53,962 nucleotides of DNA from a virus, in UHGV virus genome UHGV-0212970. The stretch is one strand, 5' to 3'. Of this stretch, positions 13,825-30,252 are shown in pieces. The notes below the pieces were generated by a model that was not told the DNA's origin, did no database searches, and saw nothing but the letters and a program-made list of their open reading frames with translations. Within the stretch, counting starts at the first letter, position 1, and each line of letters opens with the position of its first letter. The translations under genes were made by a program, and so were the position numbers.

Positions 13825-13922
13825 TTATGGACGATACATTGTTTTATATGTGCTGTTGCTGGGGTTTTATTGCCTTATGCCTGTTTATCAGGTGGTTTAT
13901 TGAATACCATATGAGGTGATCT

Positions 13923-14114
13923 ATGAAAAAGGTTGGCGAATACATGATACCGGATAACGCTAAATTAGCCGGAATCGGTCAATTTGGTTGTTATTACTAT
14001 AACTGCGTTGGTGATATTTATCAGGTCAGTATTGTTGGTGGTGTACAGCATTTTTGTCTTATGCACTTTGAATTGAGCGCACTTAAAAAGGCGGTGTTAA
14101 TGTATGAAGTTTAA
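13923..14114 (+). CDS. Hypothetical protein
   Basis: 63-aa ORF. Confidence 0.4.
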   Translation: MKKVGEYMIPDNAKLAGIGQFGCYYYNCVGDIYQVSIVGGVQHFCLMHFELSALKKAVLMYEV

Positions 14115-14307
14115 ACACTATAGGGAATGGAAGATTCCAGAATCAGCAACAAAGGCAGCGCCCGGAAATGTTTTCGGCGTTTATTTTTATATGGAAGGTA
14201 AATGGTATTTCGGCAGCAGGCCGGATCACCATTATCAGGAAATGTGTGATTATCATGTACTTGATATAAAACTTCGCGTGCCAGACGGTGTGATTGAGGA
14301 CGTTTAG
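14104..14307 (+). CDS. Hypothetical protein
   Basis: 67-aa ORF. Confidence 0.4.
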   Translation: MKFKHYREWKIPESATKAAPGNVFGVYFYMEGKWYFGSRPDHHYQEMCDYHVLDIKLRVPDGVIEDV

Positions 14308-23758: not shown

Positions 23759-24016
23759 ATGGTTGTGATCAGACTATGGCGCGGCGTTAGTATGCTCGAT
23801 GGCGAGTACAGCCGCGTGATTGAAGATGTTAATCGTGGTCGTTTTTATGAACTGGCATACAGCGAGAAAAGGGAGAACAAATATCTGAATGAATCAACTC
23901 CTATGTGGCGGAAGCTGCGTGGAGAAATAGCTTTCGCAATGCGCCACGGGTTTTATACAGATCACAACACGTTAGTAGATGCCGAACTGGTGACGACTCT
24001 TTACGAAGTAGAATGA
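23759..24016 (+). CDS. Hypothetical protein, tandem paralog A
   Basis: 85 aa; shares LWRG-S--DGE--RV---VN-GRFYEL-Y with the next gene. Confidence 0.45.
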   Translation: MVVIRLWRGVSMLDGEYSRVIEDVNRGRFYELAYSEKRENKYLNESTPMWRKLRGEIAFAMRHGFYTDHNTLVDAELVTTLYEVE

Positions 24017-24034
24017 GTAATTAATAGGTGTGAT

Positions 24035-24289
24035 ATGGAAATAATAAAACTGTGGCGCGGCAATAGCAAGGCTGATGGTGAGTTTTGCCGCGTAGTTCAA
24101 TTTGTCAATTATGGTAGGTTTTATGAGCTACCTTATGACAAAAGGAAGGATGATTTCTATTTAAGCGAATCAATCCCGATGCACAGAAAAATGAAAGCGC
24201 TTAGAGGATTATTGCGAAGCGGTTTTTATTCTTGCCCTAACCCATTAAACAATCCTGAATTGGTGGCTGTTTTTTACGAAGGAGAATGA
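24035..24289 (+). CDS. Hypothetical protein, tandem paralog B
   Basis: 84 aa; paralog of 23759..24016. Confidence 0.45.
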   Translation: MEIIKLWRGNSKADGEFCRVVQFVNYGRFYELPYDKRKDDFYLSESIPMHRKMKALRGLLRSGFYSCPNPLNNPELVAVFYEGE

Positions 24290-24291
24290 AA

Positions 24292-24615
24292 ATGACTAAA
24301 TTTATCAGCGTTAAAGTTTTCCGTGGCACTTTTCCAGAAGATAAAGAAATTGGACAATTCGCAGGTGAACGTTGAGTATGTTTCCGTGTAGCTACTGAAG
24401 ACGATGCGCACGTTAAATGCTTTCACGTATCTGAACCGCCTTTTAATGCAGAACATCTTGAAGACCTGAATAGAATTAAAAGCCTTATTTTTGCCTATCT
24501 GGCGTTCCCTGGCATAGCTAATGCTGATGTGGGATTGGTTGGCGCTGAACTGGTTGCGGAATACAAAATGACTGAAGGTGTAACAGGGGGAACTGACATT
24601 GAGCGCATCAAGTAA
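24292..24615 (+). CDS. Hypothetical ORF interrupted by an in-frame TGA near 24373-24375
   Basis: ATG at 24292, 27 codons, TGA, then 80 open codons with no internal start, ending at TAA 24613-24615. Confidence 0.35.
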
Positions 24616-24850
24616 GCTATACAAGATCAGGTGTAAAGGCGAATACCCTGGCTTTACGATTGGTTGCGAATACCTGGGCCACATTGGGTACGGCCCTTTC
24701 GGTGAGTTGGGGATGAGCACGCTGGACGATGACGGCGACAGCCGGACGCTTGATCTTGATTCTGATGATTTCGAATACATCCCGCCAGTCACTTACCGTG
24801 ACGTCGATGATTTCCTGGCTGAACAAGAAGACGATGAAGAGGATGATTAA
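24599..24850 (+). CDS. Hypothetical acidic protein
   Basis: 83 aa, TTG start after SD GGGGGA; Asp/Glu-rich C-terminus. Confidence 0.4.
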   Translation: MSASSKLYKIRCKGEYPGFTIGCEYLGHIGYGPFGELGMSTLDDDGDSRTLDLDSDDFEYIPPVTYRDVDDFLAEQEDDEEDD

Positions 24851-24985
24851 CTATGGATGACGAATACGTTAATAATTTTATTGTTATGTTTCTTAGTGAA
24901 AACTGGCGCATGTTTGAACATTATTGTTTTGAGCGCGGGGAAAATGCTGAAGAAATATATCAATATTTAGGCGGGGAGAAAGAGG

Positions 24986-25180
24986 ATGATTGAATGTCTT
25001 ATCATTGCTGTGTTTCTCCTTTATATTGCTGGCGCTATCCTGATGTCTTGTTTTATCAAATCTAATGATCTCGATCGTGGTGGTCTTGAGATTCCTTTCT
25101 GGCCTGTAGCGGTGTTTATTGCTCTCGTAGATGCCACGCGCGCGCAGATCAAAAGGGTTATTAAGGAGCGCAAGAAATGA
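24986..25180 (+). CDS. Small membrane protein
   Basis: 64 aa; two hydrophobic segments. Confidence 0.4.
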   Translation: MIECLIIAVFLLYIAGAILMSCFIKSNDLDRGGLEIPFWPVAVFIALVDATRAQIKRVIKERKK

Positions 25181-25359
25181 TTGAAGATGGTATATACGCC
25201 GTAACACTAATCGACAAGATGTTTTATCGCGTAGAGGGTGGTGATATTCGCGTTTGCGTTAGCGATGGTGAGTGGGTAGCGCCAATCATCAAGACGACGC
25301 GAGAAACAATTAAAATCTGGCTTGATAATGGCGATTTGGTGAAAGTTAGTGATTTGTAG
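25177..25359 (+). CDS. Hypothetical protein
   Basis: 60-aa ORF. Confidence 0.4.
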   Translation: MIEDGIYAVTLIDKMFYRVEGGDIRVCVSDGEWVAPIIKTTRETIKIWLDNGDLVKVSDL

Positions 25360-25464
25360 CCATAATCGCGCATAAAAAACAAATAGATTAAAATATTTCC
25401 TAACAATGCGAAATTGTAATTACCCAGCCACGCGCCGGGTTTTTGCTTTGTTGGAGGAAAATCT

Positions 25465-25665
25465 ATGTTCGACAGAATACGGGAGGCGTGTGCGTATGTG
25501 ACTGGGGCCGTAACTGCTTTTTTCGGCGCGATAACCATCAATGACATTGCCGTCTTTGTGGGTATCTTATCAACCGTAGGCACATTTGCCGTTAATTATT
25601 ACTTCAAATTACAGGAGAACAAGCGAGCGCAAGAGGAACACGACGCGCGAATGGGGAATAAGTAA
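25465..25665 (+). CDS. Class II holin (pinholin-like, phage 21 S type)
   Basis: 66 aa; two TM segments and charged C-terminus, architecture like S21 as I recall it; directly upstream of SAR endolysin. Confidence 0.75.
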
Positions 25666-25666
25666 C

Positions 25667-26158
25667 ATGATTAGCCAATCGCTGAAAAATAAGATTATTG
25701 CGGCGGCGGCTGGTGGGGCGATCGCTATTGCGGGGATGATGATAAAAGATCTTGAAGGCGTTGAGTATAAGCCGTACAGAGATGTCATCGGTGTTTACAC
25801 GATATGTTATGGACACGTCGGAAAAGACATCATGCTTGGGAAGACTTACACGCAATCAGAATGCGATGCTTTGTTAAATAAAGATCTACACAAGACCGCG
25901 AAAGCGATTGACCCATATATCAAAGTCGAAATATCAGATTTTACCCGCGCTGCACTTTATTCCTTCGCCTATAACGTAGGCGCTACCAACTTCAAAACAT
26001 CAACCTTATTAAAGCTACTCAATGACGGCAAGAAATCAGAAGCGTGCGCACAGCTTAAACGCTGGATTTATGCTGGCGGTAAGCAGTGGCAAGGGTTAAT
26101 TAACCGCCGTGATGTTGAATATGCCGTTTGCGAATGGGGTGAGACATGGACAAGGTGA
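25667..26158 (+). CDS. SAR endolysin (GH24 phage lysozyme)
   Basis: About 163 aa; Gly/Ala-rich SAR segment [14 protein letters not shown] then [24 protein letters not shown], closely resembling phage 21 R as I recall it. Confidence 0.9.
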
Positions 26159-26616
26159 AGACGCTAATTATCGCCGTTGTTGTTTGCATTATTGCCGGGC
26201 TGACCGCCGTAACGTGTTATTACCAGAGTGAGGCGGCAAGGTTACAGGAAGAAGTCACGGTGACGCAAGGTGCACTAAAGACAGCAAGTAACACTATTCA
26301 GCAGATGAAGGATCGGAACGCCGAACTGTCAAAACTTGATAAGAGGTATCACGATGAGATTAAAGCTATCAGATCTGACATTGCCGATCTGCGTGCTGGC
26401 ATTGATAGCGGTGCTATCCGGTTGCATGTCAACGCCGAGCCAGTGCGATTGCTCGACAATACCGGAACCGCCAGCCGCATTGATGGAGCCACCTGTAGAC
26501 TCACTCCAGACGCTGAATCGGCTTATCTATCCCTCAGAGAACAACTAAAAGAGAAAGATGCGAAGATCGCCGGACTTCAGAGCTATATCAAAACGCAGTG
26601 CTTACGCAAAAAATAA
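26146..26616 (+). CDS. Rz: Rz-like i-spanin
   Basis: 156 aa; N-terminal TM anchor, coiled-coil periplasmic domain, overlaps endolysin stop. Confidence 0.8.
26354..26548 (+). CDS. Rz1: Rz1-like o-spanin (lipoprotein embedded in +1 frame of Rz)
   Basis: Signal peptide with lipobox LSGC, Pro-rich mature part; SD AAGAGG 7 nt upstream of ATG 26354. Confidence 0.75.
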   Translation: MRLKLSDLTLPICVLALIAVLSGCMSTPSQCDCSTIPEPPAALMEPPVDSLQTLNRLIYPSENN

Positions 26617-26894
26617 CAGCGCGTGGACGTGTCGCCGTTTCCGCCAGCCAGCCATAACCGGGTCAATCCTTCCCGCGAGCGACGGCGGAATAGTCAAAAA
26701 CACGTAATACCGGATCATCCATCCCATTAACAGGTCAGGCGCTACCTGGGTAGAAGAAAGCGCCATTTACCAATTTTATAAAATTCTGGAAACGGTACTG
26801 ATGAAGCGCCGTTTTCAGTGTTTTATAGCTGTTTTCACTCCCTGCGGTGTCGAGTTTTGCGGGGGTTATATTTTCAGGATAGAGGAATATTCTG

Positions 26895-27437
26895 ATGGCT
26901 AAGGCTAAAGGCATTAAGTTGCCTCAATTCAAGATCCCGCTCTTTGAGCATACAACCGTTTTCTTTTGCCCGACCCGCGAGATGTTTTATGAATTTTGCG
27001 AAAAGGCAGGAATTCCAATCGAACCTGATTTCGAACTGGCAGGCGGCCTGACATTAACCTGCACAGGTGAGAAAGGCGGTAACTTCTACGTGATTGCAGT
27101 GTTCGACAATGAGCTTGGAACGCTGGTCCATGAAGCGGCGCACACGACATTTCACGTTTTAAGTGATGTAGGTGTCGTGGCAACCACTGGTCCAACTCAT
27201 CCGGCGAACGAGACTTACGCTTACATGGTAGGCCGCATCTTTGATGCATTTTTCCCTATCCTGGCCGAATCAAACGAAGCACAGGTTGCAGCAATGCAGG
27301 CTGCTGAAGTAGTAGAGCGGGCATTAGAACAGGCAGAACAGCCGAAGGAAGAAGAAAAACCCGCTAAGAAAGGCAAACGTAAGCCGAAATCAAAAGAAGC
27401 GTATGTACCGCGCGTAATGAGCTTTAAACGAGGTTGA
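26895..27437 (+). CDS. Hypothetical protein with HExxH zinc-metallopeptidase-like motif and lysine-rich C-terminal tail
   Basis: 180 aa; TLVHEAAHTTFH; C-terminus KPAKKGKRKPKSK. Confidence 0.5.
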   Translation: MAKAKGIKLPQFKIPLFEHTTVFFCPTREMFYEFCEKAGIPIEPDFELAGGLTLTCTGEKGGNFYVIAVFDNELGTLVHEAAHTTFHVLSDVGVVATTGPTHPANETYAYMVGRIFDAFFPILAESNEAQVAAMQAAEVVERALEQAEQPKEEEKPAKKGKRKPKSKEAYVPRVMSFKRG

Positions 27438-27439
27438 TT

Positions 27440-27529
27440 ATGATTGCGTCAATATTAACGTTTATGGGTGGCGTGGCATTCGGATTCATTATTTGCCTGT
27501 TTATGGTGATTATGTCTATGCGAGGCTGA
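27440..27529 (+). CDS. Tiny TM peptide 1 of 9 (29 aa)
   Basis: MIASILTFMGGVAFGFIICLFMVIMSMRG; SD GAGG 7 nt upstream. Confidence 0.4.
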   Translation: MIASILTFMGGVAFGFIICLFMVIMSMRG

Positions 27530-27531
27530 TT

Positions 27532-27627
27532 ATGGACGCTTACATCATCTCCGGATTAATCGGTGTTTCTGTATTTATGGTGGGATTTGTTATTGCCGTG
27601 CTGATAACCGTAAAGAGTAAATTATGA
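27532..27627 (+). CDS. Tiny TM peptide 2 of 9 (31 aa)
   Basis: MDAYIISGLIGVSVFMVGFVIAVLITVKSKL; SD GAGG. Confidence 0.4.
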   Translation: MDAYIISGLIGVSVFMVGFVIAVLITVKSKL

Positions 27628-27698
27628 ACTCCTACGATTTCATCTGGTTATTGGTGCTCATTGTAGGTATTGGCGTGAACATTTGCAGGCTATGGTGA
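27624..27698 (+). CDS. Tiny TM peptide 3 of 9 (24 aa)
   Basis: MNSYDFIWLLVLIVGIGVNICRLW; ATGA overlap. Confidence 0.4.
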   Translation: MNSYDFIWLLVLIVGIGVNICRLW

Positions 27699-27702
27699 AA
27701 AT

Positions 27703-27777
27703 ATGATTGACCCGCTAATTATCCTTTCTGCCTGCGTCGCTGTATGGCTGGCGATCATGATATTCATTGAAAGCTGA
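27703..27777 (+). CDS. Tiny TM peptide 4 of 9 (24 aa)
   Basis: MIDPLIILSACVAVWLAIMIFIES; SD GGTGA. Confidence 0.4.
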   Translation: MIDPLIILSACVAVWLAIMIFIES

Positions 27778-27788
27778 AGGTATTCACC

Positions 27789-27863
27789 ATGAATATTTAC
27801 GATCTCATCTGGTGGTCGTTGGTCGCCGTCATTATCTATTTCTGGTGGAAGAATGTTGTATAG
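27789..27863 (+). CDS. Tiny TM peptide 5 of 9 (24 aa)
   Basis: MNIYDLIWWSLVAVIIYFWWKNVV; SD GAAGG. Confidence 0.4.
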   Translation: MNIYDLIWWSLVAVIIYFWWKNVV

Positions 27864-27871
27864 GTGAAAGC

Positions 27872-27952
27872 ATGAACGCATACGATATGCTATTGCTGGT
27901 GGCTGTTATTACAGTCATTGCCGTTGATGTGTATCGGGAGTTTAAAAAATGA
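27872..27952 (+). CDS. Tiny TM peptide 6 of 9 (26 aa)
   Basis: MNAYDMLLLVAVITVIAVDVYREFKK; SD AGGTGA; same frame and end as ORF-track 27767..27952. Confidence 0.4.
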   Translation: MNAYDMLLLVAVITVIAVDVYREFKK

Positions 27953-28017
27953 AATGGCTTGATTTCTTTTTCCTGATTGTTGCGATTGTTCTTACCATGA
28001 CAGCACTGACTCAATAG
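27949..28017 (+). CDS. Tiny TM peptide 7 of 9 (22 aa)
   Basis: MKWLDFFFLIVAIVLTMTALTQ; ATGA overlap. Confidence 0.4.
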   Translation: MKWLDFFFLIVAIVLTMTALTQ

Positions 28018-28025
28018 GTGAGCTA

Positions 28026-28181
28026 ATGGATGTTATCGAAGCCGTATTATTCGTATGTATCGCCGCGTTAATTATCGTAGGGGTATTATCAATGTCTGAC
28101 AGTGATTTCTTAATCATGGCTATAAGTTCGCTGTTGGTTTTGGTTATCGTCCTTATTACCTGGGCGCTTTCTATTATGTGA
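28026..28181 (+). CDS. Small membrane protein 8 of 9 (51 aa, two TM segments)
   Basis: MDVIEAVLFVCIAALIIVGVLSMSDSDFLIMAISSLLVLVIVLITWALSIM; SD AGGTGAG. Confidence 0.4.
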   Translation: MDVIEAVLFVCIAALIIVGVLSMSDSDFLIMAISSLLVLVIVLITWALSIM

Positions 28182-28191
28182 AGGGTAAACA

Positions 28192-28275
28192 ATGAAAGAG
28201 CTATTCGACTGGTTGGAAGTATTAACATACTGCGCAAGTTTTGTTGCTTGCGTATATATCATCAATAAATATTGA
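28192..28275 (+). CDS. Tiny TM peptide 9 of 9 (27 aa)
   Basis: MKELFDWLEVLTYCASFVACVYIINKY; SD AAGGG. Confidence 0.4.
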   Translation: MKELFDWLEVLTYCASFVACVYIINKY

Positions 28276-28285
28276 GAGGTGAAAT

Positions 28286-28771
28286 ATGGCCCGCACTAAA
28301 AAGGCAAATGCTGACGATAAAAAGCCAGCCGCTAAAAAGGTGGGCCGTCCGCATAGCTATACCGAAGAAAAGGCATTAGAAATATGTGAGCTGGTGGCGG
28401 ACGGTCAGAGCGTTAATAAAATATCGAAGATGCCTGGTATGCCTACCCGTTCAACAATCCTGAAGTGGTTTAGGGATGTGCCGGAATTTTCGGACATGTA
28501 TATGCGCGCGAAAGAAATCGGCTTCGAGGTATTAGCTGATGAGATCCTCGATATAGCTGATGATGCTAAGAACGTTGATAAAGACCAACTACGCCGCCAC
28601 CAACTAATGATTGAAACGCGTAAATGGTTACTGGCAAAACTGCAACCGCGTAAATATGGTGAACGCGTCACACAGGAGATCGTCGGCAACAGGGAGGAAG
28701 CGCCCGTACAGGTTGAAGTCACGAAAGAAGAGATCGCCCGCATCGTCCAGGAAGTAGAAGACGAGGTGTGA
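28286..28771 (+). CDS. Terminase small subunit
   Basis: 161 aa; GRPHSYTEEKALEICELVADGQSVNKISKMPGMPTRSTILKWF ... LMIETRKWLLAKLQPRKYGERV matches the TerS pattern. Confidence 0.8.
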   Translation: MARTKKANADDKKPAAKKVGRPHSYTEEKALEICELVADGQSVNKISKMPGMPTRSTILKWFRDVPEFSDMYMRAKEIGFEVLADEILDIADDAKNVDKDQLRRHQLMIETRKWLLAKLQPRKYGERVTQEIVGNREEAPVQVEVTKEEIARIVQEVEDEV

Positions 28772-30252
28772 TTATGTTGTCCATCAAAGAAAGGGTTATT
28801 CAGTCAAAATGTGAAAACGATGGCCTGTTTTTCAACCGCTATTTCTACAAGCAAGCAAACGGTACGAAGATGTTTGTCTCAGGTCATCACATAGCTATCC
28901 GCGATGCACTGCAACGCGTTATCAATGGTGAGATTACCCGACTCATCATTAACATCCCCCCAGGGTACGGTAAAACCATGATTGCGACCATTAACATGAT
29001 GGCACGCTCCCTCGCAATAAACCCACGCACACGCTTTCTTCACGTTTCCTATTCAGACAACCTTGCATTACTCAATTCCTCGACGGTCAGAAACATGATT
29101 TGCTCGCAGGAATACCAGAAGTTATGGCCCATGAAGATCCGCAATGACGCCAACAGCAAATCAATGTGGTGGACAGAACAGGGTGGCGGGATATATGCCG
29201 CATCGTCACATGGTCAGATTACGGGTTTTCGTGCTGGGTACATGGAGCCAGGCTTTAACGGCGCGATGATTATCGACGACCCATTAAAGCCAGCTGACGC
29301 TTACTCTGATGTAATGCGGGATAAGGTAAAGACCAACTATAACGACACGCTGGCTTCACGTCTGGCAGTGCAAACCACGCCCGTGATCGTCATTATGCAA
29401 CGCATCCACTACGATGATTTGTCCGGCTACCTGTTACGCGGTGGCAGTGGTGAGAAATGGTATCACCTTAACCTGCCAGTGAAGATCGACAATAGCATCG
29501 ACTATTGGGATCTGTACCCTGAAAACGAATTCGCTATTCCTATTGCTCATAACCTGCCAGACGGCTGGCTATGGCCTAAAAAGCACAATGATAGCCATGA
29601 GGCCGGACTGAAAGCGCACCGTAGGTCATTCGAGGCACAGTACATGCAGCGCCCGCGTAAATTCGACGAGGAAGGCGCGTTATGGACTGAAGCCATGATA
29701 ACCGCCGCGCACCGGATGCAGATAACGCAGGACAAGATCCGCACTGTGATAGCCATCGACCCTGCAACAACATCATCTGATGAATCTGACGAAACCGGGA
29801 TCGTGGCATGTTCCGCCTATGGTGGCGGCAAGTACGCACAGTATTCTGTAGACGGTGACTACTCAGGCCGCATGTCTCCTAACGATTGGGCGCAAGCATC
29901 AATTAACGCTTACAACATCCATGAAGCTGACGCGATAGTTATCGAAACCAACCAGGGCGGGGAAATGGCAGAGGCCACGCTACGCAATGCCGGATTTAAA
30001 GGCCGCATTGTTAAGGTGCACGCAAGTAAGGGTAAATTCGCCCGCGCCGAGCCAATATCGGCACTGTATGCTCAGGGAAGGGTAGCCCACACTGGCAGCC
30101 TGTACACGCTGGAAAATCAAATGATGGAATACGTGCCAACTACCGCTAAAAAATCACCTGACCGCCTCGACGCAATGGTATGGGGTGTCACTGAATTAAG
30201 CCAGCCACAGGCAATGGGTCTTATGTTACCGAAGCGCATGCGCGGATTTTAA
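28768..30252 (+). CDS. Terminase large subunit
   Basis: 494 aa; ATPase P-loop-like PPGYGKT, nuclease domain acidic residues; follows TerS. Confidence 0.9.
   Translation: MIMLSIKERVIQSKCENDGLFFNRYFYKQANGTKMFVSGHHIAIRDALQRVINGEITRLIINIPPGYGKTMIATINMMARSLAINPRTRFLHVSYSDNLALLNSSTVRNMICSQEYQKLWPMKIRNDANSKSMWWTEQGGGIYAASSHGQITGFRAGYMEPGFNGAMIIDDPLKPADAYSDVMRDKVKTNYNDTLASRLAVQTTPVIVIMQRIHYDDLSGYLLRGGSGEKWYHLNLPVKIDNSIDYWDLYPENEFAIPIAHNLPDGWLWPKKHNDSHEAGLKAHRRSFEAQYMQRPRKFDEEGALWTEAMITAAHRMQITQDKIRTVIAIDPATTSSDESDETGIVACSAYGGGKYAQYSVDGDYSGRMSPNDWAQASINAYNIHEADAIVIETNQGGEMAEATLRNAGFKGRIVKVHASKGKFARAEPISALYAQGRVAHTGSLYTLENQMMEYVPTTAKKSPDRLDAMVWGVTELSQPQAMGLMLPKRMRGF

Follow-up and report, generated by a model that had tools for sequence, protein, structure and literature searches.

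What does the small open reading frame (ORF) between the lysis and packaging genes of UHGV virus genome UHGV-0212970 encode, and on what would its product act? Within the window, that is the whole analysed stretch of 53,962 nucleotides, this ORF specifies a 180-residue protein with an HEAAH motif, for which a preliminary description had proposed a metallopeptidase-like nature. Sequence comparison places the protein, as a predicted and uncharacterised member, in a widespread phage-specific family of very small zinc-protease-like proteins. It is probably a late, accessory, cytoplasmic protein of the zincin type that cuts one or a few specific targets and, in the mEpimmI lineage of coliphages, is tethered by its tail. 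The elements on which this reading rests are the following.

26895..27437, + strand: gene that encodes the zincin-like protein of 180 aa; its orthologues are mEp021 gp49 and MagusPhagus CDS0060
26895..27269, + strand: predicted minimal zincin-like domain, residues 1-125, net charge -7, delimited by the PHROG match, the cluster lengths and the AlphaFold2 (AF2) model
27129..27143, + strand: HEAAH, residues 79-83; H79 and H83 are predicted zinc ligands and E80 the predicted general base
27207..27224, + strand: NETYAY, residues 105-110; the third zinc ligand is predicted to be E106, and Y110 is a conserved tyrosine of the putative active site

The motif alone proves little, since HEAAH is the only HExxH among the window's open frames of at least 100 aa and one HExxH per 54 kb is about the chance expectation; it is more than chance because it is conserved across homologues. 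Residues 1-131 match positions 3-124 of the 127-position profile of PHROG 1365 (E 5.9e-30), which 101 of 102 diverse relatives also match. A word-indexed search returned 122 close relatives, all of them hypothetical but one; a 61%-identical homologue in nr carries the label 'PolyVal Metallopeptidase superfamily domain'. An exhaustive search of 1.84 billion representatives with an N-terminal-domain profile yielded 243 clusters at E<=1e-3, nearly all of 110-140 aa. The family members are standalone proteins of 87-215 aa, and most clusters have about 120 aa. Giant proteins of 6837 and 5449 aa, which had suggested a link to polyvalent proteins, were rejected as spurious matches of a low-complexity N-terminus; the family hidden Markov model does not match them.

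Of 146 distant homologues, 143 contain HExxH. MAFFT alignments of 138 and of 102 diverse members, 19-60% identical to the query, show G51 invariant or different in one sequence. Among the 138 aligned homologues H79 is invariant, E80, H83 and E106 are each retained in 137, and Y110 is found in 134; G93 and Y110 are both more than 90% conserved. The conserved positions give the signature HExxH-(about 22)-NExx[C/A]Y, in which two histidines on one predicted helix and a glutamate on the next would constitute the gluzincin arrangement. Acinetobacter phage Loki gp24 aligns convincingly with the family (probability 94%, E 1e-7), and the alignment spans both HExxH and E-x3-Y. Scans of the query and the 102 relatives against Pfam, NCBIfam and PADLOC yielded no family above threshold.

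The AF2 model, built with a 102-sequence alignment, is confident, with a mean predicted local distance difference test (pLDDT) of 91.3 and a predicted template modelling score (pTM) of 0.77. It contains strands at residues 11-13, 21-25, 51-57 and 63-69 and helices at residues 28-38, 44-48, 74-92 and 106-148, with the HExxH motif on helix 74-92 and E106 at the N-terminus of helix 106-148. E106 stands 23 residues after H83, and sequence and secondary structure together predict it as the third ligand. The zincin-like core has been described as a three-stranded sheet, an N-terminal helix, the HExxH helix and a Glu helix (PMC5512222), and the order of elements in the predicted model matches this core. 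The metallopeptidase-like assignment is thus supported by homologues that, down to about 20-30% identity, keep HExxH and the downstream Glu, and by the zincin order of elements in the model; neither an unconserved motif nor an order of predicted elements at odds with a metallopeptidase-like site was found when homologues and model were checked. Among the predicted viral structures of BFVD there are 29 matches at E<1e-3, nearly all to phage proteins that are uncharacterised and 105-215 aa long; their sources are phages of Pseudomonas, Erwinia, Ralstonia, Achromobacter, Acinetobacter and Eggerthella and crAss-like viruses, and a few bear the name SprT-like or metalloprotease. Searched by profile, PDB sequences gave marginal metzincin matches only, with no ArdC chain.

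In the mechanism that we propose, residues 1-125 would form a minimal zincin-type (gluzincin-like) metallohydrolase domain of a soluble, cytoplasmic, late-expressed protein. [quoted passage not shown] A substrate polypeptide would bind as an extra strand on edge strand 63-69, before the catalytic helix, and the active endopeptidase would cleave one or a few specific host or phage proteins late in infection. The gene would be dispensable for basic growth; in P22, its homologue hkcC belongs to an accessory region, the 'ant moron'. In the mEpimmI lineage, an acidic helix and a Lys-rich tail would anchor the enzyme, close to the packaging or lysis machinery, to DNA or some other polyanion. No signal peptide or transmembrane segment was seen by eye in the family sequences read, and the family core is acidic (mean charge -5.6, with a short basic N-terminal leader), which makes a cytoplasmic site of action most likely.

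Minigluzincins such as proabylysin and projannalysin have a catalytic domain of about 105-125 residues, with little beyond the zincin core, and the window domain resembles them in being little more than that core. PF06114, the family of ImmA/IrrE (M78), is not among the Pfam matches listed for the 102 relatives, and signals for CapP are marginal only. ImmA/IrrE and CapP differ in having an adjacent XRE- or CapH-type repressor gene, whereas the window gene is flanked by a spanin gene and tiny ORFs; the window domain is also much smaller than ImmA/IrrE, and its gene is found in late operons, not in an immunity region. Based on the profile and alignment results, the protein is filed under the zincin-like superfamily and PHROG 1365, and not as SprT-like, PolyVal or M78.

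The family was already catalogued without function, as PHROG 1365 and as hkcC/orf129. As found with tblastn against phage genomes, P22-like phages hold two subfamilies that belong to the same PHROG: over residues 1-125, Orf129 of ST64T and L and epsilon34 gp70 are 42-43% identical to the window protein, and HkcC of HK620 and P22 is 34% identical. HkcC and Orf129 share the signature HExxH...NExxCY (HECAH...NETYCY in P22); they are 121-129 aa long and lack the acidic helix and Lys-rich tail of the window protein. Orf129 occupies the same slot as the window gene, between lysis gene 15 and terS gene 3, flanked by orf118 (DUF2560) and orf134. The site of hkcC is a different one, the immI 'ant moron', where it follows ejection-protein gene 16 and sieA and has no lysis or terminase genes beside it. 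The P22 ant moron is known to contain hkcC (PMC2629481), which the literature lists without an assigned function (PMC2629481, PMC4837284). In the P22 record BK000583 no coding sequence is annotated for the intact 121-aa hkcC homologue at 13861-14226, and only the sieA promoter is annotated underneath it. Literature searches on hkcC, PHROG 1365, phage HExxH anti-defence proteases and SprT-like proteins with terminase found no functional study. New here is the apparently gluzincin-type signature, invariant across the aligned family and extending to the unannotated P22 gene.

Several P22-like phages carry both paralogues, at the junction and in the ant moron, within one 40-kb genome; these are SE1/SE1Spa, UAB_Phi20, Phi75, ST160, ST-29, ST-35, ST-87 and SW-70. 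The most frequent companion of the zincin-like gene in P22-like phages is ST64T orf-134 (L003 3390-3794), the full length of which matches a 'head decoration protein' PHROG and the last ~40 residues of which match many tail-fibre families.

Where the gene is found bears on what it may do. It is mobile and resides, co-oriented, in late operons, most of all at the lysis-terminase junction. Among 78 IMG/VR loci, which represent the Orf129 subfamily, a terminase gene follows within five genes in at least 54 (at least four terminase types), and a lysis gene precedes within five genes in at least 34; these counts are lower bounds because the reference set for recognising neighbours is small. DUF2560, orf134 and HNH cassettes are co-resident in shuffled orders. 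The recurrent position at, and sometimes within, lysis-terminase modules is likewise new. Gene orders that illustrate the range, where Z is the zincin-like gene of the PHROG 1365 family, are as follows.

P0122 (55% identical, same tail type): ASCH gene, Z, small terminase subunit gene (TerS), with a 4-nt gap and no tiny peptides
P0124: Z, 91-aa ORF, TerS, large terminase subunit gene (TerL), portal
P0130 (L012): TerS, Z, TerL
P0141 (L016 3132-3494): holin, SLT endolysin, Z, 88-aa transmembrane/coiled-coil spanin-like protein, TerS, TerL, portal
P0150 (L017 5001-5360): holin, DUF5675, Z, Rz spanin
P0144 (L022 5001-5363): holin, Z, GH19 endolysin, spanin, spanin, TerS, TerL, portal, with overlapping stops and starts
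P0147 and P0143: Z a few genes 5' of TerL or portal
P0158 (L015) and P0179 (L021), both with basic C-terminal extensions: Z in a ParB_N/ABC-ATPase island
P0132: Z beside a deoxynucleoside monophosphate (dNMP) kinase gene
P0138: Z beside a metallophosphoesterase gene

In three unrelated metagenomic phages (L022, L017 and L016), Z lies inside the lysis cassette with start and stop codons that overlap those of its neighbours, which is unusual for a moron. This location keeps open an accessory role in lysis, in which the protein would set the timing through cleavage of a holin tail or a cytoplasmic regulator, or would cut an envelope protein after exit through holin lesions. The gene is the first after the spanin gene in the window and is at most two genes from Rz in ST64T and L006, and canonical endolysins are also made without signal peptides. 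Nevertheless, the lysis and terminase modules are adjacent, so that an association with lysis cannot be separated from plain residence at the junction. The acidic core is unlike that of envelope-binding lysis enzymes, we know of no HExxH zincin that is a peptidoglycan hydrolase, and hkcC of P22 and HK620, the relatives in L015, L021 and L023, and Loki gp24 are all far from lysis genes. A lysis role is considered unlikely.

The C-terminal part of the protein and the neighbouring terminase genes raise a different possibility, for which three further elements are relevant.

27270..27338, + strand: acidic Ala/Glu/Gln-rich helical extension, residues 126-148, net charge -4, part of AF2 helix 106-148
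27339..27434, + strand: Lys/Arg/Pro-rich tail QPKEEEKPAKKGKRKPKSKEAYVPRVMSFKRG, residues 149-180, net charge +8, delimited by composition
27430..27433, + strand: GAGG within the last codons (K-R-G), the Shine-Dalgarno sequence of the first tiny ORF (ATG 27440)

The very basic C-terminus that had caught attention at the outset is indeed present: the tail comprises 9 K and 3 R, contains no DSSP elements in the AF2 model and has pLDDT values of 73-85. It is limited to the mEpimmI clade and lineages P0118, P0122, P0158 and P0179. An extension of at least 20 residues past the domain occurs in 8 of the 138 aligned members, and of the extensions of at least 15 residues some are basic and others acidic or neutral; with so few members carrying it, the basic tail appears to be an addition found in a few lineages. 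In the mEpimmI clade it is conserved as KPAKKGKRKPKxKEAxVPRVMSFKRG, and P0113-P0117 have an alternative basic tail. The acidic helix is missing from most family members. Its length varies among mEpimmI-clade proteins that are 85-98% identical, with up to 14 aa inserted in P0093, P0096 and P0102 (one 14-aa insertion is EQAEKATDEAEQAV-like), and this variation suggests a spacer under little sequence constraint. A function of the tail as a tether to a polyanion such as DNA is a reasonable proposal. The gene ends in the codons AAA CGA GGT TGA, and homologue P0122 also ends in KRG, with the TerS start 4 nt on; the terminal KRG may be conserved in part because the GAGG there serves the next ORF.

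A K/P-rich tail of net charge +8 would suit a DNA-dependent protease of the SprT/Spartan/Wss1 kind that, tethered by its lysines, clears bound or cross-linked proteins from concatemeric DNA before the packaging motor. Most loci have the gene one to five genes upstream of TerS/TerL, and L012 has it between the two. SprT-like proteins (PF10263), like the window family, have an HExxH zincin domain of small size, and the basic tail is reminiscent of DNA-dependent proteolysis; 29 of the 102 members give weak SprT-like Pfam matches, and SprT-like is also the name of some BFVD structural neighbours. In Loki, the gene of the remote relative gp24 belongs to a replication module, with the beta-clamp gene on one side and the helicase gene on the other (PMC5313236). 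However, the query has no match to PF10263, and the best E-value among the 102 members is 1e-4; relatives scanned individually reach 16-17 bits, below the 25.6-bit threshold, over profile positions 31-79, which cover a strand and the HExxH helix only. Alignment of the family with E. coli SprT by hhalign gave a probability of 5%, and the zinc ribbon of SprT is not found in the window family. The predicted third ligand is Glu here, in contrast to the His that completes the zinc site of Spartan and Wss1. Most members have an acidic core and no basic tail, and to our knowledge P22 genetics never required hkcC for packaging. The gene is accompanied by at least four unrelated terminase types, and this lack of a link to any single terminase family speaks against a cofactor dedicated to packaging. 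Overall, we regard DNA clearing as decidedly unlikely.

Could the substrates instead be the tiny peptides encoded next door, as the preliminary description had suggested? The interval 27440-28275 holds about nine tiny ORFs of 22-51 aa, each encoding a single hydrophobic helix and preceded by its own ribosome-binding site; three start with MN-YD-(I/L)-W-like sequences and look paralogous. The zincin-like gene immediately adjoins this array in the same orientation, and the Shine-Dalgarno sequence of the first tiny ORF is embedded in its last codons. It is present in all seven sequenced mEpimmI phages, and at least three related records annotate small ORFs in the array interval. Elsewhere the two part company: there is no such array beside the gene in the phage of P0122, where TerS follows directly, nor in ST64T, P22, HK620 or the metagenomic contexts examined. 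Conversely, rV5-like phages have the first tiny ORF by itself, and the 3 kb read around it contain no annotated zincin gene; the tiny peptides have no evident leader or cleavage motif. That the gene is not tied to the array argues against a maturation role; processing of the downstream peptides is not supported and is highly improbable, and the tiny peptides are unlikely substrates. This evidence against the peptide-processing idea is also new, and it carries a warning that adjacency is no ground for inferring such processing.

Over ~100 bp, the first tiny ORF (27440-27529) is 95% identical in nucleotides to virulent myoviruses of the rV5-like kind, V5 and FV3 among them; the match in rV5 itself sits in the unannotated gap from ORF137 to ORF138. 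Five INPHARED records of 'Campylobacter phage' (MG065654, MG065659, MG065662, MG065666 and MG065672; 135-141 kb, one 75.6 kb) match, at 92-95% identity, the same segment that the E. coli rV5-like phages match; most give C. jejuni as host, an assignment that looks doubtful.

The accessory and conflict-type neighbours seen in some contexts keep open a further role, that of a counter-defence or host-takeover protease that would cleave an immune or regulatory protein of the host, such as a sensor that late proteins like terminase, portal or capsid set off. The gene sits among shuffled accessory cassettes (DUF2560, orf134, HNH, ASCH), P22 hkcC neighbours sieA in the dispensable ant moron, and some P22-like phages have two diverged paralogues. 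The L015 member, in its ParB_N/ABC-ATPase island, lies directly 3' of a Tad2-like gene, and the label of the 61%-identical homologue points to polyvalent proteins, whose zincin domains, like those of ArdC, have been proposed to have effector roles (PMC5512222). These PolyVal/ArdC domains (PF18818) possess the same kind of core, with a small beta-sheet, an HExxH helix and a Glu-ligand helix, and are likewise carried by phages and mobile elements. Moreover, the L015 and L021 relatives adjoin ParB_N genes, and polyvalent proteins often combine their zincin domains with a fused ParB-type domain (PMC5512222). The window family differs in that its members are standalone proteins of about 120 aa rather than parts of multidomain proteins, and are rare on plasmids. 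PF18818 gave no match for the query (E<=10) and is not among the 25 most frequent of the 50 families found for the 102 relatives (E<=1). PADLOC and literature searches revealed no link to a defence system, the gene resides in late operons whereas most known counter-defence genes are early, and the association is guilt by neighbourhood only. A counter-defence role seems rather unlikely.

At L015 4729-5570, P0158 directly follows the Tad2-like (anti-Thoeris family) gene, and the island around them comprises two ParB_N genes, an ABC-type ATPase gene and a thioredoxin gene; the L021 island is similar and has no Tad2-like gene.

Several points weigh against a late, tail-tethered zincin-type protease. 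HExxH sites also occur in enzymes that are not peptidases, and 12 members weakly match an HExxH peptide hydroxylase model. The tethering role of the tail is purely inferential, and the positional association may reflect a mere recombination hot spot for morons. Other members have genes of replication or nucleotide metabolism around them, or lie in the immI region of P22. A metal site that hydrolyses nucleotides or small molecules or hydroxylates peptides, or a protein that acts through binding without catalysis, appears quite improbable, since the invariant general-base Glu combined with a Glu helix is the canonical signature of gluzincin peptidases (PMC5512222), and the weak family matches that share a theme are all to members of peptidase clans. 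There is a modest chance that HkcC/Orf129/PHROG-1365 constitutes a new functional class of late phage protease wired into the lysis/packaging operon, as translational coupling of the gene among holin, endolysin and spanin genes in three unrelated phages might indicate. The step served by such a class could be the disarming of host sensors for terminase, portal or capsid, proteolytic lysis timing, or the stripping of DNA before packaging, and the mEpimmI version would be a DNA-tethered variant.

The ORF at 26895..27437 is a real gene and, as first described, appears in the ORF list with an ATG start and a TGA stop. The position given for it, between the lysis and packaging genes and directly before the tiny ORFs, is also correct: the holin, lysozyme and spanin genes (25465-26616) are followed by a 278-bp gap and the zincin-like gene, and beyond the tiny ORFs lie TerS (28286), TerL (28768) and the portal gene (30310). 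Two elements were recognised upstream of the gene.

26882..26886, + strand: Shine-Dalgarno sequence GAGGA, 8 nt before the ATG, seen in the sequence
26786..26825, + strand: putative terminator-like hairpin, from the RNA fold of 26617-26900

The hairpin has a 10-bp stem, CUGGAAACGG/CCGUUUUCAG, followed by a U-rich tract, and lies ~70 nt 5' of the start codon. The mEp021 record places terminator TERM_6 at the equivalent spot, between the lysis genes and gp49. A consensus scan for promoters and terminators, which missed the hairpin because its loop exceeds 8 nt, gave matches at chance level and no promoter in the gap upstream of the gene; Rfam contains no RNA family matching window positions 24000-30000. 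An ORF on the opposite strand (26929..27249, 106 aa) was discarded because the frame on the + strand has conserved homologues. On the 5' side of the lysis genes, the ORFs at 23759-24016 (85 aa) and 24035-24289 (84 aa) are clear tandem paralogues that share LWRG...DGE..RV...GRFYEL.

In the region compared, the window is 88-91% identical to Escherichia phages MagusPhagus, mEp554, mEp010, mEp044, mEp013, mEp021 and mEp515, and its sequence identifies it as a mEp021-like (mEpimmI) temperate coliphage. The mEpimmI group consists of Nus-dependent temperate siphoviruses that are termed non-lambdoid (PMC11893012). The lambdoid framing of the preliminary description was hence inexact, although its remark that this position often holds morons is fair for the lysis-terminase junction. 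The gene is kept in 7 of 7 sequenced mEpimmI phages, and its orthologues mEp021_49 (gp49) and MagusPhagus CDS0060 are annotated as hypothetical. In E. coli it was found in 30 of 5426 complete genomes (~0.5%), as prophage copies that are located on the chromosome every time; on plasmids it is rare, with 8 records that are mostly phage-sized. The mEp021 paper reports 16 virion proteins, and the mEp021 record tags another gene as 'virion structural protein'; that gp49 is labelled hypothetical beside them speaks weakly against a place for it in the virion.

Although the model phages P22 and HK620 both carry a member, the family has neither a Pfam entry nor an assigned function, and the P22 record leaves it unannotated. 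The results support the name 'zincin-like metallopeptidase, HkcC/Orf129 family' in place of 'hypothetical protein'. Genetics is readily available in P22, HK620 and mEp021. The conserved, predicted catalytic signature and the stable position beside, and at times within, the lysis and packaging genes make the protein a tractable candidate for an unrecognised late function or a counter-defence protease.

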